DNA of 64,000 nt from Octopus sinensis (taxonomy: Eukaryota). The notes under the pieces are model-generated. The model did not search any database. It was given only the letters and a program-made list of their open reading frames with translations, and was not told the origin of the DNA. The stretch is taken from NCBI RefSeq assembly GCF_006345805.1, contig NC_042999.1:146444001-146508000 (forward strand), given 5' to 3'. The position numbers were made by a program, and so were the translations under genes. Positions 6,536 through 63,011 of the stretch are shown here, in pieces (the first letter of the stretch is position 1; each line of letters starts with the position of its first letter).

Positions 6536-6661
6536 CATCACAATCAAGGAACGGCCATTATAGGCCATTCACCCACTAGAAATAACAGCCAAAGCTTCAA
6601 CCGCAAAATAACATTAATTCCGCAAACCAGGAGAAAATTAAAAAAACATTTACCCTGTAGT

Positions 6662-6765
6662 TTCTTATACGATGCACCGTTTCAATCTATTGTTTAATGG
6701 TAAACTAACCTGATTAAATTAAATCAAGCCAATCTTCCATAGGCCGATAGATTCGTCAGTAAGAA
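6662..6765 (-). ncRNA. Type I hammerhead ribozyme in the inverted segment (1-nt insertion before GAAA)
   Basis: Reverse complement reads ttctta-CTGACGA-atctat...atagat-t-GAA-acggtgcatcgt-A-taagaa. Confidence 0.8.
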
Positions 6766-7511
6766 GCAGCCAGATCGGAACAGATATTATCACGAGGCAC
6801 TTCCATCCCTGCCTCGGCAATATCTGACCTAAAATTTTCAAATCATCGCACTCGCACCAAATTTATCGGCAGCAAATAAATATAAGCCGCCGATTCCATT
6901 ACGGAATTAACCAGAAAATTCATAATTAATCAATATAGGGTGGCAAAAAATTTTGTAGAATTTTTTTGCCACCAGCGGCCTAGTGGGAAAAAATTAAATA
7001 GTCATAGACCATTTATAAGTTCAACATCACAATCAAGGAACGGCCATAATAGGCCATTCACCCACTAGAAATTAAACAATAGATGAAACGGTGCATCGTA
7101 TAAGAAACGGTGCATCGTATAAGAAACTACAGGGTAAATGTTTTTTTAATTTTCTCCTGGTTTGCGGAATTAATGTTATTTTGCGGTTGAAGCTTTGGCT
7201 GTTATTTCTAGTGGGTGAATGGCCTATTATGGCCGTTCCTTGATTGTGATGTTGAACTTATAAATGGTCTATGACTATTTAATTTTTTCCCACTAGGCCG
7301 CTGGTGGCAAAAAAAATTCTACAAAATTTTTTGCCACACTATATTGATTAATTATGAATTTTCTGGTTAATTCCGTAATGGAATCGGCGGCTTATATTTA
7401 TTTGCGGCCGATAAATTTGGCGCGAGTGCGATGATTTGAAAATTTTAGGTCAGATATTGCCGAGGCAGGGATGGAAGTGCCTCGTGATAATATCTGTTCC
7501 GATCTGGCTGC

Positions 7512-7614
7512 TTCTTACTGACGAATCTATCGGCCTATGGAAGATTGGCTTGATCTAATTTAATCAGGTTAGTTTACCATTAAACAATAAATGAAACGGT
7601 GCATCGTATAAGAA
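7512..7614 (+). ncRNA. Type I hammerhead ribozyme, copy 1 (one mismatch in stem II)
   Basis: Stem I ttctta/taagaa; core CTGACGA 7518-7524; stem II atctat/ataaat; GAA; stem III acggtgcatcgt; predicted cleavage after GUA at 7608. Confidence 0.85.
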
Positions 7615-7999
7615 ACTACAGGGTAAATGTTTTTTTAATTTTCTCCTGGTTTGCGGAATTAATGTTATTTTGCGGTTGAAGCTTTGGCTGTTATTTCTAG
7701 TTGGTGAATGGCCTATTATGGCCGTTCCTTGATTGTGATGTTGAACTTATATATGGTCTATGACTATTTAATTTTTTCCCACTAGGCCGCTGGTGGCAAA
7801 AAAATTCTACAAAATTTTTTGCCACCCTATATTGATTAATTATGAATTTTCTGGTTAATTCCGTAATGGAATCGGCGGCTTATATTTATTTGCTGCCGAT
7901 AAATTTGGCGCGAGTGCGATGATTTGAAAATTTTAGGTCAGATATTGCCGAGGCAGGGATGCAAGTGCCTCGTGATAATATCTGTTCCGATCTGGCTGC

Positions 8000-8102
8000 T
8001 TCTTACTGACGAATCTATCGGCCTATGGAAGATTGGCTTGATTTAATTTAATCAGGTTAGTTTACCATTAAACAATAGATGAAACGGTGCATCGTATAAG
8101 AA
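8000..8102 (+). ncRNA. Type I hammerhead ribozyme, copy 2
   Basis: ttctta-CTGACGA(8006-8012)-atctat...atagat-GAA-acggtgcatcgt-A(8096)-taagaa. All core nucleotides are canonical. Confidence 0.9.
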
Positions 8103-8487
8103 ACTACAGGGTAAATGCTTTTTTAATTTTCTCCTGGTTTGCGGAATTAATGTTATTTTGCGGTTGAAGCTTTGGCTGTTATTTCTAGTGGGTGAATGGC
8201 CTATTATGGCCGTTCCTTGATTGTGATGTTGAACTTATATATGGTCTATGACTATTTAATTTTTTCCCACTAGGCCGCTGGTGGCAAAAAAATTCTACAA
8301 AATTTTTTGCCACCCTATATTGATTAATTATGAATTTTCTGGTTAATTCCGTAATGGAATCGGCGGCTTATATTTATTTGCTGCCGATAAATTTGGCGCG
8401 AGTGCGATGATTTGAAAATTTTAGGTCAGATATTGCCGAGGCAGGGATGCAAGTGCCTCGTGATAATATCTGTTCCGATCTGGCTGC

Positions 8488-8590
8488 TTCTTACTGACGA
8501 ATCTATCGGCCTATGGAAGATTGGCTTGATTTAATTTAATCAGGTTAGTTTACCATTAAACAATAGATGAAACGGTGCATCGTATAAGAA
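8488..8590 (+). ncRNA. Type I hammerhead ribozyme, copy 3
   Basis: Same as copy 2; core 8494-8500; predicted cleavage after 8584. Confidence 0.9.
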
Positions 8591-8975
8591 ACTACAGAGT
8601 AAATGTTTTTTTAATTTTCTCCTGGTTTGCGGAATTAATGTTATTTTGCGGTTGAAGCTTTGGCTGTTATTTCTAGTGGGTGAATGGCCTATTATGGCCG
8701 TTCCTTGATTGTGATGTTGAACTTATAAATGGTCTATGACTATTTAATTTTTTCCCACTAGGCCGTTGGTGGCAAAAAAATTCTACAAAATTTTTTGCCA
8801 CACTATATTGATTAATTATGAATTTTCTGGTTAATTCCGTAATGGAATCGGCGGCTTATATTTATTTGCTGCCGATAAATTTGGCGCGAGTGCGATGATT
8901 TGAAAATTTTATGTCAGATATTGCCGAGGCAGGGATGCAAGTGCCTCGTGATAATATCTGTTCCGATCTGGCTGC

Positions 8976-9078
8976 TTCTTACTGACGAATCTATCGGCCT
9001 ATGGAAGATTGGCTTGATTTAATTTAATCAGGTTAGTTTACCATTAAACAATAGATGAAACGGTGCATCGTATAAGAA
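8976..9078 (+). ncRNA. Type I hammerhead ribozyme, copy 4
   Basis: Same as copy 2; core 8982-8988; predicted cleavage after 9072. Confidence 0.9.
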
Positions 9079-9298
9079 ACTACAGGGTAAATGTTTTTTT
9101 AATTTTCTCCTGGTTTGCGGAATTAATGTTATTTTGCGGTTGAAGCTTTGGCTGTTATTTCTAGTGGGTGAATGGCCTATTATGGCCGTTCCTTGATTGT
9201 GATGGTGAACTTATAAATGGTCTATGACTATTTAATTTTTTCCCACTAGGCCGCTGGTGGCAAAAAAATTCTACAAAATATTTTGCCACCCTATATTG

Positions 9299-9436
<138 letters not shown>

Positions 9437-38667: not shown

Positions 38668-41545
38668 AGCAAAGCACTAGCCATAGATAGAAATAGAGTA
38701 GAGGGTGAGCTAGTTAAGAAGCTAGAAGAGGCAATTAGAAGCGGCATCGCATCCGACGTTTGGCGGCGAGGTTGGCCCTCGACCAACACTTCAACGCCAA
38801 ACACGAAGGATGTGCTGTCAGAGCTAGGATGCGTGCTCTAAGGAACGAAGTGTTGGAGCCGCGAGAGAGGCCCGGTGGCAGAGGCGCAACAGGGCAACAA
38901 AGCCACCATTCGGTCACTGGTAGATGAACAGGGGCGCGAATTGCTCGAGCCAAGTAAAATGTGTGAGGCCTTTCAGCAGCATTTTGCCCGACTGTTCGGA
39001 ACGAGTGGAGGGCAAGAACGTAGGGTGGACTTCAGTGCCTACCTACATAGCCTACCACGACTCTCGACAAGAAAGGCAGGGTGCTGCGAAGGTGCCATCA
39101 CGGCGGCGGAAGTGCGGGAAGCGATGGCAGAATGCTCGAGGGACAAATCACCGGGTTTGGATGGTCTACCCTACGAGCTTTACAATTGTATGCCAGACTT
39201 GTTTGGGAGATCTCTTGGCGGCGGTGTACTGCAACTGGCAGCAAAACGGGAGCATTCCTGGTTTTGTGAGCCGAGGAGCCGTAACACTGCTGAAGAAAGA
39301 TCTAAACAAGGGAAATGTAATAGATAACTTTAGGCCCATCACTCTGCTTAATGCAGACTTGAAAATTTTGGCCAAGGTGCTAGCCAAGAGGTTGGCGCTT
39401 GTCATCGAGAAACTGGTCGACAAGGCGCAAACATGCGCCGTGCCAGGCCGGACCATCCATGACAACCTCCATCTGATGCGCTACATCATAGACAGGGTAG
39501 TTAACGAACCTGGCATGGGTGGGGCCCTGATCAACTTGGATCAATCAAAAGCCTTTGATAGGGTAGACCATCGATACTTGGAGGCAGTCCTGAGAGCGGC
39601 TGGTTTCGGTCCCGTCTTCCGCGGCTGGATAGCTGCCTTGTACAGAGGCATCCGTTCGGTAATTCGCGTAAATGGACATCTATCGAGACCTTTCGACATT
39701 GCACGTTCGGTCCGTCAGGGATGCCCCCTCTCGCGCTTCTATACGTATTGACTCTTGAGCCACTACTGCGGAAGCTGGCGACTCTAAGGGGCATCCCGCG
39801 AGAATTGGGATGCGGGACGAGCGTGTCTGCATACGCGGACGACGTCACCGTCATAGTGTCTAGCCACGAGCACTCGAGCTGGTCGGCGAGACACTGAAAA
39901 ACTACGAAGCGGTGACAGGAGCGAAAATCAACCGGGAAAAGTCAGTGGGCTTGCGACTAGGCACCTGGAGAAGCAAGCCCATGCCGTCCACCAGCGCCTC
40001 CGTCGTGGGACGCTGGACCGACGGCCCGGTTGAGTTGCTCGGGGTCTGGTTTGGTCCGGACCTCCAAGTGGAGAAGAACTGGAACGAGATAACGAGTAGG
40101 GTGGTGACTCTCGCCCGGCAATGGGCCGAGAGGAAACTGTCCCTAAAAGGTCGAGCGGAGGTGGCGAACACGTACATCGCGTCCGTCATCTACTACCGCC
40201 TGACCGTCGTACCTTGTCCCGACCCTACCATCACCAAACTACACCATCCTCTTTCGCTTCTTGTGGAAAGGATGCGTCCCGATGGTCAGGCGATCCATTT
40301 GCTGTCAACACCCGTTAAAAGGAGGGCTGGCATGCCGTGGTTGATGATGCGCAGACACGCGCTGAACTGCGACATCTCTGGCTCTATGTAGACGACGGTG
40401 AACAGGTGTGGTCGCCGTTTGTGAGGCACGCTTTCCCGCAGCTCGTCTCCATGACCGAACTGCAGTCGTGGATCAAAAAGAGGCCGAGGAAGGGCGAATG
40501 GCACCGCGAGTGTCGCGTTGCTCTCAAGCAACTCTGCCGTCCTGGGTCGACCTTAAGTGACTTCAACACAACCAAAGCATTCTATAGGGGTTTAGTGGAG
40601 GGGAGGTACGACGACGAGCTCGGGGCGAACCTGGACGTCGACGAGGAGTACCTGCCCGCCTGTTCGGGACGACTTCGGGCCAGGCCCATGGACAACTTCC
40701 AGAGATCCCTGGCCTGGCATGTGCTACCGAGAAGCGCTACCCGTTCGGGATAAGCTCTACAGACACGGCTCGAGAACACGGGCCGACCTGCCCGAGATGC
40801 GGTCAGAGCGACGAAACCGTTCTGCACGCACTCGTTCAGTGTCCAACAATTTCCGACCTGTGGCTTATGTCGAACAACTGCTGTCACGTGTGGACGAGTC
40901 GGTTTATCAGCTGAGTCTATCGTCAATATTGTCACGCCTCCTTCCTTCAAACGGGAAGGAAGAGCTATTTCATCATCATCCTTGTGGCTATGGCGAAAGA
41001 ATGTATCTGGTGGACGCGTCTGAAAGGATTGGAGGACAAACTTCCTCTCTGGTCAATCTCTCATCAACTTCTTCAAGTACCACTTGAAAAGGAAAGTGAG
41101 AGTAGAGAGGCAAGTTTTGTCTAGCGAATGTTTTAAAAAAAGATGGTGAATGTGCAAGAATGGCACGTATGAATGACGAAGCCACCTTGAGCATAGTCCT
41201 ATGAACCCAGAAATCGAAAACAGAGAGTTACTTATTTGCAAAAAAAAAAAAAAAAAAAAAAGAAATATAAAATGTGACTTCATTGACCGAGGTTACCGTG
41301 GTCTTTTCCGTAGGCTTTCTTTCCACGGGTAAACCTCACCTGTCCTCCCCTTTACACTTCATATTGAATTTCTGTGATACGACCCTATCCCTATTGATCA
41401 TTTTTTTTTTTTTTTTTTTTTTTTTTGTTTTTTTTTTTTCCTCTCCCCCTTTTTTTTTTTTTTTTTTTTTTTTTCCCCCCCCTTTTTTTGTCCTCTTTCT
41501 CTCTTTTACGATCCCTTTGGATTGAACCTCCCCCTTCTAATTTTT

Positions 41546-41612
<67 letters not shown>

Positions 41613-41688
41613 AATACCTTCAAAAGAAAGCTCTACCTTGTAATTTGTTCTATCTGTGTGCAGCCCTGTGTGGCTATAAAGAAACATA
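38668..41688 (+). mobile_element. 5'-truncated Tx1/L1-clade LINE (ORF2 RT and C-terminal zinc knuckle, frameshifted), inserted in a (TCTA)n microsatellite
   Basis: KSPGLDGLPYELY; NFRPITLLNADLKILAKVLAKRL; DQSKAFDRVDHRYL; SVRQGCPLS; SAYADDVTV; GAKINREKS; CPRCGQSDETVLHALVQC. GC-rich relative to flanks, with (TCTA)n on both sides. Confidence 0.92.
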
Positions 41689-41735
41689 TCTATATAATCT
41701 ATCTATCTATATATCTATCTATCTATCTATATATA

Positions 41736-41766
<31 letters not shown>

Positions 41767-41964
41767 ATCTATCTATATCTATATATATCTATCTATCTAT
41801 ATCTATCTATCTATATCTATCTATTATTATATCTATACTATATCTATTTATCTATATCTTATATATATATATATATCTATATCTATCTATATATATATAT
41901 CATCTATATCTACTAATATATATCTATCTATATCTATCTAAATCTATCTATCTATATCTATCTA

Positions 41965-42000
<36 letters not shown>

Positions 42001-43149
42001 GTCTTATATATATCTCTATCTATATATCTATATCTATAAATCTATATTATATCTATCTATATCTATCTATCTATATCTATCTATCTCTATATCTATATCT
42101 TATATATATATCTAATCTATCTCTATCTATATATTATCTATATAGATACTATATGGTATATCTATATATATATCTATCTATCTAATATCTATATTTATAT
42201 ATCTATATCTATCTATCTATATATATCTATCTCTATATCTATATATATCTATATCTATATCTATATCTATATCTATATCTATATCTATATCTATATCTAT
42301 CTATATCTATCTATCTCTATATATATATCTATATATATATCTATCTATCTCTATCTATATATATATCTATATATATATCTATCTATCTATCTATATATAT
42401 CTATCTATCTATATATCTATATATATCTATCTATCTATCTATATATATCTATCTATATATATCTATCTATATATATATATCTATCTATCTATCTATATCT
42501 ATCTATCTATCTATCTATATATATCTATCTATCTATATATATATCTATCTATCTATATATATATCTATCTATCTATATATATATCTATCTATCTATATAT
42601 ATATCTATCTATATATCTATCTATCTATCTATCTATATCTATCTATATATATATATCTATATCTATATATCTATATCTATCTATATATATATCTATATCT
42701 ATCTATATATATATATCTATATCTATATCTATATATCTATCTATATATATATATCTATATCTATATATCTATATCTATCTATATATATATATATCTATAT
42801 CTATCTATATATATAAATCTATATCTATCTATCTATCTATCTATATCTATATCTATCTATCTATATCTATCTATCTATATCTATCTATCTATCTCTATAT
42901 ATCTATCTATCTATCTATATCTATCTATCTATCTATCTATATATATCTATATCTATATCTATCTATCTATATATCTATATGTATATATCTATCTATCTAT
43001 ATATATCTATCTCTATATCTATATATATCTATATCTATCTATATCTATATCTATCTATCTCTATATATATATATCTATATATATATCTATATATATATCT
43101 ATCTATCTCTATCTATATATATATCTATCTATCTATCTATCTATCTATA

Positions 43150-43180
<31 letters not shown>

Positions 43181-43325
43181 ATCTATCTATCTATATATAT
43201 CTATCTATCTATATATATATCTATCTATCTATATATATATCTATCTATCTATATATATATCTATCTATCTATATATATATATATATCTATCTATATATAT
43301 ATATCTATCTATATATATATATCTA

Positions 43326-43356
<31 letters not shown>

Positions 43357-43573
43357 ATCTATCTATCTATATATATATATATCTATCTATCTATATATAT
43401 ATATATCTATCTATCTATCTATATATATATATCTATCTATCTATATATATATATATCTATCTATATATCTATCTATATATCTATCTATATCTATCTATCT
43501 ATATATATCTATCTATATATATCTATATATATATCTATCTATATATATCTATCTATATATATCTATCTATATA

Positions 43574-43604
<31 letters not shown>

Positions 43605-43973
43605 ATATATCTATCTATCTATCTATATATATATCTATCTATATATATATCTATCTATATATATCTATCTATATATCTATCTATATATATCTATCTATAT
43701 ATATATATCTATCTATATATATCCATCTATCTATCTATCTATATATATATATATCTATATATATATATCTATCTATATATATCTATCTATATATATATAT
43801 ATCTATCTATATATATCTATCTATATATATCTATCTATCTATCTATATCTATCTATCTATATCTATCTATCTATATCTATCTATATATATCTATCTATCT
43901 ATCTCTATCTATATATATATATATATATATATATATCTATCTATCTATCTATCTCTATCTATATATATATATA

Positions 43974-44004
<31 letters not shown>

Positions 44005-44834
44005 ATCTATCTATCTATATCTATCTATCTATCTATATCTATCTATCTATATCTATCTATCTATCTATCTATATATCTATCTATCTATCTATATATCTAT
44101 ATATATATATCTATCTATCTATATATATATATATCTATCTATCTATCTATCTATCTATATATATATATCTATCTATCTATATATATATATCTATCTATAT
44201 ATATATATATATCTATCTATCTATATATATTTATCTATCTATATATATATATATATCTATCTATCTATATATATTTATCTATCTATATATATATATATAT
44301 ATCTATCTATCTATCTATCTATATTTATCTATCTATCTATCTATCTATATATATTTTCTATCTATCTATCTATCTATCTATATAATTTATCTATCTACTA
44401 TCTATCTATATATATCTATATATATATATTATATATATATCTATATATATCTATATATATATCTATATATATCTATATATATATCTATATATTATATCTA
44501 TATATATCTATATATAATCTATATATATCTATCTATATATATCTATATATATATATCTATATATATCTATATATATATATCTATCTATATATATGATTTT
44601 TGATTTTTCCAGTTTCAGCTAATGAGCTGTGGCCATGTTTGGGCACCGCCATTTGGTTTGCTACACGGGTTTACCTCACGGATGCTTTTTAGCAAACGCC
44701 ATCTGATGCATGAGAGAATTCGATGCAGCCGCCCTCATCTGCACCTCCTGCAGTGAAGTTGGTTCATCCGGGATATATATATATATCTATATATATATAT
44801 ATCTATATATATAGATATATATATATATATATAT

Positions 44835-44873
<39 letters not shown>

Positions 44874-45066
44874 TATATATATATATATAGATATATATAT
44901 ATATATATATATATAGATATATATATATATATAGATATATATATATATATAGATATATAGATATATATATAATAGATATATATATATATAGATATATATA
45001 TATATAGATATATATATATAGATATATATATATATATATAGATATATATAGATAGATAGAGATATA

Positions 45067-45097
<31 letters not shown>

Positions 45098-45133
45098 GAT
45101 ATAGATATCTATATATATATATAGAGAGAGAGA
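41689..45133. repeat. Giant compound (ATCT)/(AT) microsatellite, about 3.4 kb
   Basis: Directly visible; interrupted at 44596-44772. Confidence 0.95.
44596..44772 (-). mobile_element. Short 3' fragment of the same CR1-like LINE embedded in the giant microsatellite
   Basis: Reverse complement aligns with about 48995-49165 (gatgaaccaacttcac...ggcggtgccc..catggccacagctcat.agctgaaact). Confidence 0.8.
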
Positions 45134-45837
45134 GGTCTCTGTGTCTTTGTCAACCCATCACTACTTGACAACTGGTGTTAGTGTGTTTAAAATCCCATAA
45201 CTTAGCAATTCGGCAAAAGATACCAATAGAAGAAGTACTAGGTTTAAGAAAATAAGTCCTGATGTTGAGTCGTTTGACTAAAACCCTTCAGGGCGGTGCT
45301 CCAGCATGGCCACAATCAAATGACTGAAAGAATAAAAGAATATTTAGGAGAATGTAAAATAGTGGCCATCCTCATTTGGTATTAAGGTAGGAGCCTTTGA
45401 GAGGAGAGGGTGCCATGAGAATTAAAGAAAGGGTCAGAGAAACTGTCATGTTTAATGAAATGAAGAGGATTTTTAAACCTCATTGGTCACCATAATAAAA
45501 AGAAAGAATTCATATGGAAGCATGGCTGCGTGGTTAAGTGTGCAGCTCAACTGTTTTGTTTTGGGTTCAGTCCCACAGCATAGTACTTTGAGCAAGGCAT
45601 CTGCTACAATAGCCCCAGGTCAACCAAAAGCCTTGAGTGGAAGATGGAAACCAAAAGAAGATGGAAACCAAAGAAGCCTGGAGTGGAAGATGGAAACCAA
45701 AAGAAGTTCATTGTGTGTGTGAGCAAGAGAGGGAGAGAAAGCAGGAGAGAGAGGGAGAGAAAGAGAGAGTGTGAGAGAAAGAGGGAGAGAGAGTGTGAGA
45801 GAGCTTGAGAAAGAGGGAGAGAGCGCTGAGAGAGAGA

Positions 45838-46420
45838 GCGTGAGTGATAGAGAGAGAGAACATGAGTGATAGAGAGATAGAACATGAGTGATAGAGAGAG
45901 ATAGAACATGAGTGATAGAGAGAGATAGAACATGAGTGATAGAGAGAGATAGAACATGAGTGATAGAGAGAGAGAACATGAGTGATAGAGAGAGATAGAA
46001 CATGAGTGATAGAGAGAGATAGAACATGAGTGATAGAGAGAGAGAACATGAGTGATAGAGAGAGATAGAACATGAGTGATAGAGAGAGATAGAACATGAG
46101 TGATAGAGAGAGAGAGAACATGAGTGATAGAGAGAGAGAGAACATGAGTGATAGAGAGAGAGAGAACATGAGTGATAGAGAGAGAGAACATGAGTGATAG
46201 AGAGAGAGAACATGAGTGATAGAGAGAGAGAACATGAGTGATAGAGAGAGAGCATGAGAGAGTGAGAGAGAGAGAGCATGAGAGAGTGAGAGAGAGAGAA
46301 CATGAGTGATAGAGAGAGAGAGAACATGAGTGATAGAGAGAGAGAACATGAGTGATAGAGAGAGAGCATGAGAGAGTGAGAGAGAGAGAGCATGAGAGAG
46401 TGAGAGAGAGAGAGAGCATG
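45838..46420. repeat. Minisatellite [AGAACATGAGTGAT(AG)n], unit about 22-26 bp
   Basis: About 20 copies of catgagtgatagag, grading into GA-rich sequence. Confidence 0.9.
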
Positions 46421-47062
46421 AGAGAGTGAGAGAGAGAGAGAGTGTGAGCGAGAGAGAGAGTGTGAGAGAGAGAGAGTGTTAGCGAGAGAGAGAGTGTTAG
46501 CGAGAGAGAGAGTGTGAGAGAGAGAGAGAGTGAGAGAGAGAGTTGTAGTCTATGGTATGTTACATTTAATGAAATGCGTGACCAAAACCCTCACTGTTTC
46601 ACTAGTTACAGTGCTTCACCAAGTTCAAACCCTGCTGAGGTCATCTTCCTTTTCAATCCTTCCAAGGTTGATACTATAAAATACTGAGGTCATCGTTATC
46701 CTGAACTAACCCCTCACAGCTAATTTCTAACTTTCTACCTATGTTGGAAATTACTAATACTGCTACAATATCAAATTTTGTTTTTGATGGGGTGATTCAG
46801 TTCCCTTTTTCCATGAATTTTTACATTTTACTCTTTTTTGAAAAGCTCCCCCATCTGAGATTATCAATCTGAAAAATTTATTTTAAAAAAAAAAAGTCAA
46901 AACTGAAATTTTGTTGTCTAGCGAGAGTCATCATGCCAATATAGTTAACACACACACACACACACACACTGGTTCAATCCCACCCACTTATCAAATATTA
47001 CAGTTTCTCAAAACTGAAAATTACAGAAAAGGGGATCAGAAACCTCTTTCTCCTATTTTTCA

Positions 47063-51487: not shown

Positions 51488-51540
<53 letters not shown>

Positions 51541-51545
<5 letters not shown>

Positions 51546-52382
51546 AAAGGGCTTAGTAAAATAAATTACTTTGCCGCATACTGAACTCATTAGAAATAGC
51601 AGCTAAAAAAAACTTTTTTAAAACTATTTCTAATACTTAAAGAAAACCTCTCTCATATAGTGTTTGCTCAATTCAACTCACGCAAATATGGGGGTAGAGA
51701 CATTAAAAAATCAAGTGCAAAGGTTATTTGAGAACGTACGTTTCAAGATTAGTCAACACGACACTTCTATCATCAGCTCAGAACTCCCTGGTTTGGATTT
51801 GAAAACACTGAAAGTAGGAGCATACCCTTTCGGCCTCCTCTCGCTTCCGAAGATCTGCTCGCAACTAACAGTGCCAACAAACTCAAAAATGCAAGCGAAG
51901 AATTTCTGCTCTCCCCTTTCCACCAGCGTGGGTTAAAATCAGCAAACACTATGCTTTTTTCGGTAAAATCTGCGGCATTATATAGAGAGAGATGAATTAT
52001 AATTTCAACAATTGAGGGTAAAATTAATTAATTAATCAATTTCACCAAGTGTTCAGTATGCAAAGGGACCATTTAAGGCGAATTCAAATTATTACATTAT
52101 ATAAAAGGGCTTAGTAAAATAAATTACTTTGCCGCATACTGAACTCATTAGAAATAGCAGCTAAAAAAAACTTTTTTAAAACTATTTCTAATACTTAAAG
52201 AAAAAGTTTTAAAAAAGTTTTTTTTAGCTGCTATTTCTAATGAGTTCAGTATGCGGCAAAGTAATTTATTTTACTAAGCCCTTTTATATAATGTAATAAT
52301 TTGAATTCGCCTTAAATGGTCCCTTTGCATACTGAACACTTGGTGAAATTGATTAATTAATTAATTTTACCCTCAATTGTTG

Positions 52383-52385
<3 letters not shown>
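51541..52385 (-). mobile_element. Second retrozyme-like element: about 1.2 copies of a 558-bp unit plus a 5' inverted segment (52205-52385), inserted in (TA)n
   Basis: atataaaagggcttagtaaa... occurs at 51541 and 52099 (period 558). 52205-52385 is the reverse complement of about 52001-52183. (TA)n flanks both sides. Contains a minus-strand hammerhead. Confidence 0.78.
51729..51780 (-). ncRNA. Type I hammerhead ribozyme with palindromic stem III and GUU triplet
   Basis: Minus strand: tgag-CTGATGA-tagaagtgtcgtgttgactaatctt-GAA-acgtacgt-T-ctca. Stem I tgag/ctca; stem II is imperfect (aga/tct, gtc/gac). Confidence 0.75.
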
Positions 52386-52426
<41 letters not shown>

Positions 52427-53835: not shown

Positions 53836-56800
53836 ACAAAAAAAAAACAATACCCTCATGAAAGAATAAAAGAATTGACATTTTTTTTTATTATTAAACA
53901 TCCGATTATGAGTTCTTTGTTCATGGCTTCGCTTCCCCATTGAATGGTCATGTCATTTGAGATACCAATAAGCGTTCAAAAACCATTCTTTACATTAACT
54001 TAGTATTCATCTAACCTCTCGCTCCCCGCGCTTGGGTATGGAGGGGGCCAACAATTAATAGGGAACAGGAGACTCCCGGTTACGATTATTTCGTCTCCTT
54101 TGCGCTGCTAATGGCCTGAACAATGGCTTGAACTTCCACAATTTCATTCTCTCTTTAGAGTTTGTAGCAGAGAAATCGTAGGAGCGGGGTGGTGGTTTTT
54201 TTACTGAATTTATTATTATTTTTGGGTGGGGGAGGTGGGTGTTAATAATTTAAATAATTACTCCCCAGTATGGACACAACTGGCGGGTTGAAATAACTGA
54301 CTTTGTAAAGCCATGTACAGGATGGTATAGCTTGGCCTGTTAGAGATAGTAGTCAAATCTCCCTCCAAATCATCACCCTGCCACTTTAAATGACACACTG
54401 GATAATTTGAATCCTTACATAACCCCAAACCATGGAAAAGATGGTAGTTTGGGGTAGCCGGAAACAACCTTCTATTCTATCAGGGCTTGCCCGAGGCGAA
54501 ACAACGATTTGATTTAGGAGATAACGAGGGAACCTCCACGTGGTCATGAGACATGCTAGAAATAGCAGCCATACAATCACTTCAAATTAAACATTTTTTC
54601 TTTTATTCTTTTTAAAAGAGAAAGGAAGCTAGTTAGTGTGGAATGAGATACACAAGGCAAAAAAAAAAGACATGATAATAACAGTTATCATGTTTAATTG
54701 TGGTTTAGCACCATCAACTCCGTTAGAGCAGACCTATGATCAAAAACATTCTAGCCGTGACCGTCTTGTCTTTTTGACAGAATTATAGGAGACTAAGGAC
54801 CATTTATCAAATGGTGTCCTTTTCTTATCTGAGACAATATAGTATGACACTTGCCTGCTAGATGGTTTGGTGTTAAAACAACTGCGAAAACAATATTAGT
54901 GCGTGTGTAAGAAAGTGAAGTTAAGCACAATTAACTAGTCTGATAATAATAAATAATAAGGTGAGGATGTGAAAGCTGTCGATGCTAAAAGGAACATCGA
55001 TAAAGCCGGCCTCGGAAAGAATATTCTCACATACACACATATAAACATATACACAAATAAATACACAAATATGTGCACGCGCGTACACACATGTATATAC
55101 ATTAATTATAATAATGCGTTAAGAAAATATTTTTAAAAAGCATTAATATAAAAAAATATACTTATAAATCAGCTTACATAAATGAAGAGACGTTGATGGA
55201 GAGAAGAAAAAAAATCACAGAACATCCAACAGGTAGTAACAGAGAGAGAAAGAAAGAGAGAAGTTTGATGGAAAAAAATTCTTTAAAATGTCAGGCAGCA
55301 ACAATCAGATGACGAATAAAGAGTGTTTAAATTCATACTTTAAAAACATTACTCACCCCTGTGTAGAATTTACATCTCAAATAAAGCCGTCCATAACGAT
55401 AAGATGTGACCAACATATAAAAAAGCTTAGCCAGGGTTCACGGGTAGACAGACACCTTGCGAAACGAATATTCCTTTCTTTTTCTTTTTTTTAATTAATT
55501 CATTTGATACGTTTAAATTCTTTTGGTAAGTTTACTTTATATAAACATATTAAGAATTCCGTTTAATGTCTCTCAATGATGTATACAGGGTATATATATT
55601 TATGTGGCTTTAACTAAACTTCATTTAAAAAGCCTGCCGATTAGTGCGCACGCCTTCCATTCTGTACGGATAGCAACTCGATCCCTTCGAACTGGAAGCA
55701 GTCGTATGCATATTTATTTCGTGACGGTCTTCTTTCTATCCTTTAAAATCGGACCGCCTAAAAATAAATAAATACAATAAAACTGTTAGAAGAAACTAGA
55801 CAGGTGGTTAAGCATGCTTACGAACTTTGAACATAGTGTCAAATGAATGAATAAAAACATGACCGAGTAAAAAAAAGAAAGAAAAACGAAAGAGAGTGAG
55901 AGAGAAATTTGAAGTCCCTTCTTGCTAAAACTATATGATAATATTAGTAGTAGTAGTAAGCAATATTCCAAAACAGTAGACAATTCAATTAAGTGATTGA
56001 ATAATAAATGGACGAGTCTTCACCAAATACATAAAAATTAAGAGTTATGTGAGGGGGTGGCAGTTAAACAGGATTATAGTTTGGAAAAGTGATGTACTTA
56101 ATGGATATATATCCCTAATACAGCTCTCATATTGCGCTATGTTTATGAGATGTTTACCTTTTGCCAGTTGTTGTTTGTTTATTTAGCTTTCCGGCTTGGG
56201 GAATATAGTGGTTGCCAGTTGTAGACCACATGCATTTAGCGGCAGACACGTGCAGGCAACAACGCTTAATTCTGATAGTGCTGCTAATAATTCCACAACC
56301 TCTCCGTATTTCTCTCTCTCTCTCTCCTTCTTTCTTTCCTTTCCGTTTCTATCTCTGGTTCCGATAGATTTTCAACATCTACAGCTCACTTCCTTTCTTC
56401 CGAGACGAACAATTTAGGTAGTGGAGTGATGAGTGCATGTTTTCCAAGTGGTTCTTTTGACTAGACTGCGGAGTTATAAAAATAATATTCGTTCGAAAGA
56501 ATAAAACTACGCGATATATTATAGAATTCTTTGTTTGAAAACCAAATTCGATTTGACAAAAAAAAAAAAAAGTCCATAAACTACTCCGAATAAATATAAA
56601 AGATTCAACATGACATACATGCATGCATGCATGCATACACACACACACACACACATATATATATTATGGTAATACACAAGGTGTAATATTCCTGGGAATT
56701 TACTCACAAGCGCAATTCTGCGAGATGAAACCGCACGCGGCAAACAACAAACTGTTTCGAATATAAACACATCAAACAAGACAACCACAATTAAAGGAAT

Positions 56801-60184: not shown

Positions 60185-60696
60185 GGCTAAGACATACAAA
60201 AGTAGGGTTAATTTTACTGTGTCAGATCGTATGATTTGGTTCCGGTTGTGAGGTTGTGTGTAACTTCCAGTAAAAAAAAAGAATAAAACAAAATAAAACA
60301 CGTACCATTGTAAAACTCATCACTTAACGATATTCATATCGCCAGGCGAAGGACTAGTAGCCCCTGTGGTGAATGCAAACAGCTGCAACCTCGGTTGGAG
60401 AGAGGTGAATGAACCCAGTTGGAGTAACCCTGGCCTGAAGAAATACGCCGAGTAAAATTCCTTATACGAATTTTCAACAACCGATATTTCACGATCTATA
60501 TTTAATTGTATTATTAGAACAATAGTATTTTGTTTTTTCCTTTCTCATTTCACATACTACCGAGGTCGACTTGGCCTTTCATCCTCTTGGGTTCGATGAA
60601 ATAAGCACCAGCTGAGCAGTATGGTCGATGTAATTGACTATCTCCTTCACCAACATAAAAAATTTCAGGTCCTGTGCCTATTGTAGAAAGGATTAT

Positions 60697-62665
60697 GAGA
60701 ACAATAGTTCCTACTATGATAGGAATTGTTTCTGTTTTTAGATTCCACATTCTGGTTACATCTATTTCCAGGTCTTTGTATTTTGAAAGTTTCTCCATTT
60801 CTTTTAGAGACACGTTGTCATCTGCCGGTATTGATACATCAATTAGAAAACATTTTTTTTCTTCATGATCTCTGACAACTATATCTGGTCTGTTGGCCTT
60901 AATTTCTCTATCTGTGTGTATCGGCATATCCCAGAGTATGGTTGCTTTCTCGTTTTCTGTGACCTTTTCTGCCTATACCATCTTTTTTCTGTTGTTATTC
61001 CATAATGTTGGCATAGCTTCCAGTGTATGTAGGTTCCAACTCTGTCATGTCTGTGAATATATTCCTTCTTAGCCAGGACTGGACAGCCAGAGATAATATG
61101 ATTTATTGTTTCTTGTCCATCTCCACACATTCTGCAGTTACTTGTTATATTTCTTTTCATTACATGTTTTTGGTAATTTCTGGTGGGGAGGCTTTGGTCT
61201 TGTGCTGCAATTAAAAATCCCTCTGTCTCTGCTTTGAGTCCTGAGCTTCTCAACCATTGCTGGGATTTTTCTTTGTCTATTTCTTTTGCGTTTAGTTTAG
61301 TCCAGTATTTACCATGAAGGGGCTTTTCTTGCCATCGTTTTATCATGGTTCGTCGCTGTTCTATTTTTAGTTTGGATTTCATTTGTTTTATAGCTTTTGT
61401 TGTTTCTTCTTCTTCTTCTTCATATTTATTAGGTGGTATGATTTCTTGTTTGTATTTGTCAGCTTCCTTAAATACTGAGAACAGTTTTTTGTTTTGCTCG
61501 TGTTTTGCCGCTATTTGTATCAGTTTTCCTTCCTTCTGAAGTAGATATTTTTGCAGTCCTATGGTGGTTATTTTATAGTAGTTTTCCAGCTGTATAAGGC
61601 CTCTACCACCTTCTATACGCTGTATATATAGTCTTTCTATGTCAGATTTTGGGTGATGCATCCTAGATCCTGTCATTATTTTTCTTGTTTTCCTATCTAT
61701 TTTGGTCAGTTCATTTAGTGTCCAGTTAAGGATATTGTAGCTGTAACTTATAACTTGGACAGCTAAAGTGTTAATACCTATTATCTTGTTTTTAGTATTG
61801 ATCTAACTCGTCTATAATATTCTTTTTTTATTTTCTCTTTCATTTGTGTGTGTTGTGTCTTATCTAGTTCATGGATTCCTAAGTATTTGTAAGTTTGGCT
61901 TTGGTCTAATTCTTTTATTTCATTGGCTTTATCTAGTGTGATGTTGCTACTCTTAACTAGTTTTCCTATTTTCATGGTTACTTTGGCGCATTTTTCTAAT
62001 CCAAATTTCATATCTATTTCTTTGGTAAATCCATGAACTGTCTTTAATAGTGTTTCCAGCTGTTTGTCATTTGCAGCATATAGTTTTAGGTCATCCATAT
62101 ATAAAAGGTGGCTGATCATTTTGCCGTAACATTTATATCCGCATCCAGTTCTGTTTAGCATATCAGATAGTGGTGACAGTGCCAAGCAGAAAAGGAGTGG
62201 AGAGAGCGTGTCTCCCTGGAATATTCCTCTTCTAATGGGGATGGTTTTGGTTTTCATGAGTCTCCCTTTTGTTTGGAGCTGTAGCACTGTTTGCCATTTA
62301 TTCATAGAGTGCCCTATGAATTTTATAATTGTTGGTGCTACTTAGTTAATGGCTAGTGTTTCGAGGATCCATGTGTGGGGGATGCTATCAAACGCCTTTT
62401 TGTAGTTCTTTCTGTGGCTGTCTTCAATTATGGCTTTATTAATCATTAGTTGATCTTTACAGCCATATGAGCCTTTGCGGCATCCTTTCTGCTCTTCTGG
62501 AAACAGGTTGTTTTCGTCCAGGTGCTTGTTCAACCTTTGCGATATCACTGCAGTAAATGCCATGTACATTGTAGGGGAACAGGTTATTGGTCTGTAGTTT
62601 TCTGGTTTTGCTGTCTCATTTGATTTGGGAATTAAGATGGTTTTCCCCTTCGTGAGCCATTCAGG

Positions 62666-62668
<3 letters not shown>
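60697..62668 (-). mobile_element. R4/Dong-like non-LTR retrotransposon fragment (RT, CCHC knuckle, restriction-like endonuclease), frameshifted
   Basis: NYRPITC; EEQKGC; YKKAFDSIPH; GIFQGDTLSPLLF; HLLYMDDLKLY; CRMC...ETINHIISGC...RHD; RPDIV...IDVSIP...EK..KY. The 5' end abuts an (AAT)n tract. Confidence 0.93.
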
Positions 62669-62702
<34 letters not shown>

Positions 62703-63011
62703 GAAGGCGAATGGCTCAGTGGTTAGAGCGTAGAGCTTACGACCGCGAGGTTGTGAGTTCGAATCCCGGACTGGGCTGCATGTTGTGCTCTTGAGCAAGA
62801 CACTTTTTTTTCACGTTGCTCCAGTTCACGCGGCTGTAGAAATGAGTTGCGACATCACTGGTGCCAAGCTGTATCGGTCTTTGCCTTTCCCTTTGGATGA
62901 CACTGATGGCGTGGAGAGGGGAGGCTGGTAAACAACCATACCCGGACTTGTGCCTGGGTGGGTAAATTTCTAGGTGCAATCCCATGGTCAGTCATGACCG
63001 AAGGGGTTCTC
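62703..63011 (+). mobile_element. tRNA-derived SINE, family B, in an (ATT)n tract
   Basis: tggctcagtggttagagcg...gttcgaatccc head; body matches 11194-11510. Confidence 0.88.

Follow-up and report, generated by a model that had tools for sequence, protein, structure and literature searches.

Animal non-LTR retrozymes and Penelope-like elements (PLEs) are the described systems that come closest to the element analysed here. As set out in PMC7229834 and in Li et al. (bioRxiv 10.64898/2026.07.22.740005), animal non-LTR retrozymes are non-coding, low-GC tandem units with a type I hammerhead in each; they are dispersed as anything from monomers to long multimers, have a strongly self-paired predicted circle and occur in genomes that contain PLEs. 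The 558-bp element at positions 51541-52385 of the window (the whole stretch of 64,000 nucleotides that was analysed) is alike in all of these respects. Its unit of 558 bp (442-600 bp in relatives) exceeds the ~300 bp, with a maximum of ~450 bp, given for the retrozymes of PMC7229834, and lies within the range of 51-972 bp given by Li et al. (bioRxiv 10.64898/2026.07.22.740005). Its hammerhead is of the PLE type, whereas that of animal retrozymes is canonical and, unlike the described retrozymes, the 558-bp family is dominated by head-to-head inversions, two fixed 3' ends and (TA)n targets. Neither 'inverted' nor 'microsatellite' is used anywhere in the main text of PMC7229834 (0 occurrences), and neither was noticed in the available text of Li et al. 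In contrast to animal retrozymes, the circle of the 558-bp unit is a predicted one, and a homologous PLE terminal repeat (pLTR) was not found in 72 PLE loci of the genome; an LTR-type arrangement was not seen among the loci drawn.

The EN+ PLEs (Neptune, Hydra, Penelope/Poseidon; PMC8557442, PMC3846280, PMC11167929, PMC4209133) share with the 558-bp element 5' truncation, partial tandems, a head-to-head inverted copy, an optional tail on one arm, a (TA)n or AT-rich target and a predicted dimer-type hammerhead with a palindromic stem III. PLE insertions have been described as partial tandems with an adjacent inverted 5'-truncated copy, a tail of 30-40 bp and a (TA)n bias (PMC8557442); most of the inversions are head-to-head, and one of the arms carries the tail (PMC3846280). 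A purified PLE was found to cut both strands and to extend them, the tail being defined by two internal start sites of the reverse transcriptase (RT); a dimeric form of the protein is predicted, and insertion in vitro still took place with mutated hammerheads (PMC11167929). Unlike the EN+ PLEs, the 558-bp element has no ORF, and its tail of ~90-100 nt is about three times longer than 30-40 bp. The non-autonomous Chlamys PLEs, e.g. MRC1 of Chlamydomonas (PMC8557442), are likewise non-coding, multicopy in head-to-tail order and mobilised by a PLE. They resemble their autonomous partner at the 3' end, whereas for the 558-bp family no such partner was found in the 72 PLE loci; and most Chlamys lack canonical hammerheads (PMC8557442), whereas the 558-bp unit has a hammerhead.

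On sequence criteria, the 558-bp element is filed as a non-LTR retrozyme with PLE-like insertion, and not as an autonomous PLE. The kind of system is already known, since the PLE signature is published and animal retrozymes have been proposed in print to be non-autonomous PLE derivatives (bioRxiv 10.64898/2026.07.22.740005). The formation of tandem and inverted PLE insertions and of their tails has been named an open question (PMC8557442), and the retrozyme life cycle has been called unresolved (Li et al. 2026, bioRxiv 10.64898/2026.07.22.740005). In the present family, young, short insertions are available by the hundred, completely assembled and with ends that follow a countable rule; a candidate cis signal is common to several families, and the small RNA could serve as a substrate in the published in vitro assay of a PLE. 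Animal retrozymes were previously linked to PLEs through co-occurrence and homology, and the family adds a link to PLE integration through the signature of the mechanism.

Structure of the element and its family

The unit at window 51541-52098 (558 nt) is called U, and RNA of ribozyme sense is the minus strand of U. R coordinates are those of U rotated to begin at U462 (window 52002), low R values lying on the 3' side of the RNA. The features of the window copy are as follows.

51497-51545, no strand: left (TA)n target microsatellite (TRF and sequence), with no readable target-site duplication
51541-52204, minus strand: arm 1, 1.19 tandem 558-bp units in ribozyme sense (sequence comparison)
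51588-51634, minus strand: predicted bulged hairpin (fold -15.6 kcal/mol), whose 3' strand bears a 17-nt motif (51590-51606)
52002-52098, minus strand: tail of ~90-97 nt in an internal copy; it is the stretch that separates the long 3' end from the short one
52148-52164, minus strand: second copy of the 17-nt motif, in the partial second unit
52199-52204, no strand: inversion junction, where the arms overlap by 6 nt, beside the hairpin
52199-52385, plus strand: arm 2, a 187-nt inverted 5'-truncated copy, head-to-head with arm 1
52224-52240, plus strand: third copy of the 17-nt motif, in the inverted arm
52385-52422, no strand: right (TA)n target microsatellite (TRF)

The element thus reads (TA)n, U1-558, U1-106, reversed U91 to 1 with U558 to 462, (TA)n. 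The earlier note had described about 1.2 direct units of 558 bp, an inverted segment and (TA)n flanks, and each of these was borne out. The direct repeat (51541-51646 = 52099-52204) is 100% identical at a period of 558, giving 664/558 = 1.19 units; the 187 nt of the inverted arm are the reverse complement of unit positions 91 to 1 and 558 to 462, with 1/91 and 0/96 mismatches between the arms (one in total); and TRF returned the two flanking tracts. Arm 1 has its 3' end at ~51541, which is the fixed short end of the family, and is truncated at the 5' side at ~52204, while the 3' end of arm 2 (52385) is the fixed long end, with a tail of ~96 nt (52290-52385). No stop-to-stop frame of at least 110 aa overlaps 51541-52385, so that the element is non-coding, and no ORF with PLE RT and GIY-YIG endonuclease lies inside it. 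GC is low (0.30-0.39) across the two 1-kb bins that cover the element. Rfam found no family at the gathering score over the window; at E<=10 the inverted repeat drew only miRNA-type matches below threshold, and a hammerhead was again absent from the results.

The window copy contains one hammerhead; a hammerhead in every tandem unit is a feature of the family, in which hits lie 558 apart. Over the 2.72 Gb of genome searched, a 28-nt half of the hammerhead was found 1,979 times without mismatch, and the control 0 times. A search with the unit gave 186 matches from 40 of 1,820 candidates, on many contigs; the full-length copies among the matches listed were 93-100% identical to the 558-bp unit and, judged by this identity, the family is young. 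The first 100 hammerhead-half matches fell into 44 loci, from which an estimate of ~870 loci for the whole family was scaled. Thirty-eight of the 44 were drawn as a chromosome-order set, the remaining 6 being already covered by earlier loci (5 of them in the second set). This set comprised 25 inverted and 13 single-armed loci of 0.5-6.4 unit-lengths, and the second set, the 19 best-scoring loci, comprised 12 inverted and 7 single-armed ones. The longest array reached ~17 unit-lengths and one array spanned 9.7 kb; TATATA was present within 20 nt of 113/114 flanks. The suggestion of the earlier note that this is a system rather than a one-off therefore stands: the family is multimeric and genome-wide, with the architecture of the 488-bp family described below.

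Contigs from sequencing runs (three guessed to be RNA, one unlabelled) cover the unit, although contigs cannot show transcription, strand, ends or circles, and they were given no weight on either side. Words of the unit recur in part in runs of four coded organisms, the best shares being 0.86, 0.42, 0.19 and 0.67, a pattern that points to relatives in several species.

The hammerhead and the related families

A minus-strand hammerhead with a perfect palindromic stem III had been placed at 51729-51780 by the earlier note, and it was found exactly there, with the following parts.

51729-51780, minus strand: type I hammerhead, predicted to cut after U51733 (GUU)
51780-51777, minus strand: stem I, 5' strand
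51776-51770, minus strand: core CUGAUGA
51769-51745, minus strand: stem II, a U·U pair followed by 3 bp, an internal loop and 3 bp
51744-51741, minus strand: GAAA
51741-51734, minus strand: palindromic stem III, ACGUACGU
51733, minus strand: N17 = U
51732-51729, minus strand: stem I, 3' strand

Stem III is an 8-nt perfect palindrome and helix I has 4 bp, a short helix of the PLE type. A strict descriptor, which was composed after the motif had been seen, gave one match in the unit and 0 in 2,000 dinucleotide shuffles. As to whether stem II and the cleavage triplet are canonical, a point that the earlier note had left for checking, the answer was negative: in 247/247 rows the triplet reads GUU instead of GUC and stem II opens with U·U in place of G-C, these rows being the commonest hammerhead type of the family with duplicates from overlapping loci counted in. 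A GUU triplet together with a U·U pair suggests a low predicted rate of cleavage. In a monomer, stem III would leave a loop of 2 nt, while two copies cofold through stem III and through stem I between molecules; the hammerhead would probably cut only as a dimer, and slowly. Such a dimer arrangement has been reported for PLE hammerheads (PMC4209133; PMC6765202).

Covariation was examined among 11 family representatives. Paired bases filled 89.7% of cells, compared with 29-47% when the alignment was slid as a control, and two-sided changes occurred in 8/12 pairs; the rows had been picked with a pairing filter, which inflates these pairing figures. Covariation among relatives supports the predicted hammerhead fold of the 558-bp unit, and the concern raised earlier, that the family consensus might lack a foldable hammerhead, did not hold: it folds and it covaries. 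The G10.1-C11.1 pair, which is highly conserved in PLE hammerheads (PMC4209133), is U·U in the 558-bp family and G-C in three relatives (3/11 rows); the row of the 488-bp family is misaligned at this column and has A-U in a separate fold. With GUU and U·U, the predicted ribozyme of the 558-bp unit departs from the canonical form. Autonomous PLEs of the same genome have several such hammerheads; in several PLE families the triplet is GUU or stem II begins with a mismatch, which makes a hammerhead predicted to be non-canonical ordinary here.

The window also carries a sister element.

6536-9302, plus strand: 488-bp element of 4.5 units with an inverted arm, short end at 6536 and long end at 9302

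Its hammerhead has a GUA triplet and a long stem II, and its inversion junction (window 7085-7127) shows a 19-nt tandem duplication across stem III and the cut site. The earlier note had called the 558-bp sequence largely unlike the 488-bp unit. Overall this is so, as the score of a global alignment of the two was reached by 18/300 shuffles for the 3' parts and by 159/300 for the remaining parts. It does not extend to the 17-nt motif, which is common to both units (19/23 nt identical), stands in collinear position and lies a short way 5' of the short end in each, 123-126 nt 3' of the cut in the 558-bp unit and 75 nt in the 488-bp unit. The description of an independent family needs qualification, given a positional motif and a similar spacing of two ends that are shared with the 488-bp family. 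Distant kinship of the two families is possible, as is convergent use of a single protein. The predicted hairpin with its motif is a candidate cis signal and a candidate hotspot of 5' truncation and inversion.

Further families belong to the same group, and those of 543 and 600 bp bear the 17-nt motif at the corresponding position. A 543-bp subfamily is ~87% identical to U and has a CCGAUGA core with 456 exact matches, many of them tandem or inverted. C occupies the matching core position in copies of an autonomous PLE family (L138, L231, L245); for this reason the core was not taken as the mark of a dead ribozyme, and it may be a tolerated variant. Examples of the subfamily lie at L213, L214 and L217. 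A subfamily of ~555 bp is also marked by the 17-nt motif, and older motif-bearing copies occur at ~70% identity. A 600-bp family has GUC, a G-C first pair, a long stem II and long tandem arrays; with 1,889 candidates and 99% identity among the 40 of them that were scored it is young, and it is the best candidate in the group for an active ribozyme. One example is L205:200-930 (G000:C27:17380707-17381437). At one locus (L216:1877-2825), a 442-bp variant of the 488-bp family without GAAA and stem III forms a tandem of ~three units.

Two more hammerhead repeat families with a palindromic stem III and without the 17-nt motif were seen at L150:3300-3930, with a period of ~455 bp and a weak likeness to the 488-bp unit, and at L039:800-1300, an inverted pair. 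Genome-wide, the 17-nt motif had 29,335 matches against 2 for its control. This number was not adopted as a copy number of the group, since an abundant repeat that is unrelated fits the pattern as well (L155, L156, L166, L218 and window 54571). At window 54555-54571 (minus strand), this abundant, dispersed and apparently unrelated repeat holds the same GCTGCTATTTCTA word.

Two 3' ends, the template and insertion

The 3' ends of the 558-bp family lie at R1-10 (long) or at R75-100 (short), ~90-97 nt apart, while the 5' ends vary. Inversions were head-to-head in all of the 37 inverted loci and tail-to-tail in 0/37. One long and one short end were combined in 36/37, the tail of ~90-97 nt being carried by exactly one arm in each of these; the exception, L093, has two long ends. 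If the choice of end were independent at ~1:1, half of the inverted loci would be expected to be mixed. Single arms used either end, with 6 long and 7 short among the 13 of the chromosome-order set and 6 long and 1 short in the second set. Several loci stand outside the 37-locus count: L012 holds two adjacent elements, of which the young one is long plus short; L018 holds a second partial copy and is an exception in that one of its arms begins at R61; and in two loci that were joined up by coordinates, a long end is combined with a short one (2/2). In the 488-bp family, a long end (R1) was combined with a short one (R86-101) in 10/10 inverted loci. The 5' ends clustered at R160-200 (14/63, p = 1.6e-4, an interval chosen after looking at the data), where the RNA is predicted to form the bulged hairpin, and showed no clustering at the ribozyme cut (2/63 in R270-300). 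A literature search that covered sources outside Repbase/Dfam, subscription journals and supplements found no account of the families, of the ~90-100-nt tail, of the long-plus-short rule for retrozymes or of the motif; repeat databases and supplements may list the families.

The insertions look palindromic, and the long arrays show satellite-like higher-order patterns, both of which would also fit a DNA-level mobile satellite or fold-back element (spread of the Helitron, MITE or eccDNA type) in which the hammerhead is a relic; Tc1/mariner elements, too, use a TA target. However, the ends are asymmetric, fixed at 3' and variable at 5'; 13/38 loci lack an inverted arm; a fixed offset separates the two termini, which are therefore not terminal inverted repeats; and the stems of the hammerhead covary across families. 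Spread at the DNA level therefore seems to us very unlikely.

The template was approached through substitution distances (197 segments, 60 loci), which were 0.88% within an arm, 0.95% between the arms of a locus and 2.8% between loci. Since the distances within and between arms are about equal and far below those between loci, both arms of a locus come from one haplotype. The units inside one locus are not identical. At L121, units were paired across the arms from their outer ends at four variant sites, while L118 and L128 gave other patterns without such pairing; the result of this register test, which is based on few long inverted arrays, is thus mixed. Long arrays showed alternating or period-3 variants. 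Assembly error, gene conversion and unequal exchange could all contribute to the unit variants.

We consider it likely that the 558-bp element is a non-autonomous, PLE-dependent retroelement (a non-LTR retrozyme) that is copied in trans by a PLE RT and GIY-YIG endonuclease. In the proposed course of events, multimeric unit RNA would be bound by the PLE protein, probably at the hairpin motif, and the endonuclease would nick (TA)n on one or both strands. Synthesis of cDNA would initiate within the RNA at either of two sites ~90-97 nt apart. If one strand were extended, a single arm would result, ending long or short. Extension of both would involve one initiation at each site, and the 5'-truncated cDNAs would be joined head-to-head, often at the hairpin. 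Cleavage by the ribozyme may perhaps be dispensable for insertion.

A narrower version of PLE dependence is strict rolling circle, in which 558-nt monomers freed by the hammerhead are ligated into circles, and both the tandem arrays and the two arms result from the PLE RT going round a single monomer circle. Folded as a circle, the unit is 63% paired (z = -5.4 against 40 shuffles), which agrees with this, as do the shared haplotype of the arms and the failure of 5' ends to stop at the cut site; moreover, circular retrozyme RNAs are on record for coral, mussel and axolotl (PMC7229834). Non-identical units are not expected from a monomer circle, nor is the outer-end register of L121, with the reservation that L118 and L128 differ, and alternating or period-3 arrays fit multimeric templates or later unequal exchange. 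In addition, the 543-bp subfamily has spread with its CCGAUGA core, the 442-bp variant is still tandem at its one locus although it lacks the 3' half of the ribozyme, and Li et al. saw cleavage in 1/9 dimers tested. Strict rolling circle is, in our judgement, possible and rather doubtful.

Within the reading of trans copying by a PLE, a more specific proposal can be offered tentatively, with the odds against it. At least four young non-coding families (488, 543, 558 and 600 bp) would parasitise one PLE via the bulged hairpin, a dimeric PLE would prime both nicked TA strands on one multimeric RNA with its subunits obliged to use different start sites ~90-100 nt apart, copying would proceed from a linear multimer or from a circle of two or three units and not from a monomer circle, and cleavage would be dispensable. 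If true, such a dimer would explain both the near-absolute long-plus-short rule and the matching haplotypes of the arms.

Relation to the Penelope-like elements of the genome

Of 5,029 GIY-YIG candidates in the genome, 150 were scored, and RT plus GIY-YIG ORFs of 775 and 781 aa are present. Their cysteine linker is presumably of the Neptune type, a clade label that we assign by comparison with the published description (PMC8557442). PLE 3' repeats end in (TA)n, and the PLE hammerheads have a palindromic stem III. BLAST of the units found no unit, related terminal repeat or motif in the elements' own 3' UTR among the 72 PLE loci, which are a small sample of the 5,029 candidates; unit matches at two of these loci (L046, L053) are separate insertions beyond the TA tract. 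Local alignment to nine PLE-locus 3' regions likewise revealed no pLTR homology. The sole alignment above all 100 shuffles, that of the 488-bp unit with L150, was rejected as a pLTR link because the sequence at L150 is a hammerhead repeat of ~455 bp in its own right, next to a PLE fragment. The tail of the commonest intact PLE family is ~26 nt, against 90-100 nt in the 558-bp family.

It might be supposed that the unit is a mere terminal repeat of a coding PLE and that its copies are 5'-truncated insertions of that PLE. The hammerhead type, the tail, the inversion and the target are the same as those of pLTRs, and Xenopus retrozymes are homologous to pLTRs (bioRxiv 10.64898/2026.07.22.740005). 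Against this, copies stand head-to-tail without an intervening ORF up to ~17 unit-lengths, and 0 of the 40 loci drawn run 5' into shared coding sequence. When four PLE proteins were compared by tblastn with 180 overlapping loci, hits appeared in 10, and the three loci viewed (L120, L202, L027) contain separate elements beyond the TA tract. The earlier note had named as one refuting outcome a unit that is merely the terminal repeat of a coding Penelope and never multimeric; the family is multimeric, and no continuous coding PLE was found in the loci examined. We regard this origin of the present copies as highly improbable, while descent of the unit from an extinct or unsampled pLTR is likely.

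The commonest intact PLE family (L131-L143) has an upstream ORF besides its 781-aa ORF, and the core of its hammerhead shows a compensated U3-A8 pair (UUGAUAA). Elsewhere in the window, 38842-41087 is a GC-rich, frameshifted fragment of a non-LTR retrotransposon with a 275-aa frame that matches RVT_1 (E 2e-17), and 60550-62722 (minus strand) is a broken non-LTR retrotransposon in several frames, of which a 307-aa piece resembles zf-RVT just under the cut-off. At 41686-45123 the window has an ATAT/TATC microsatellite of great length, and at 45726-46542 a GA-rich minisatellite with repeats of 22-24 bp.
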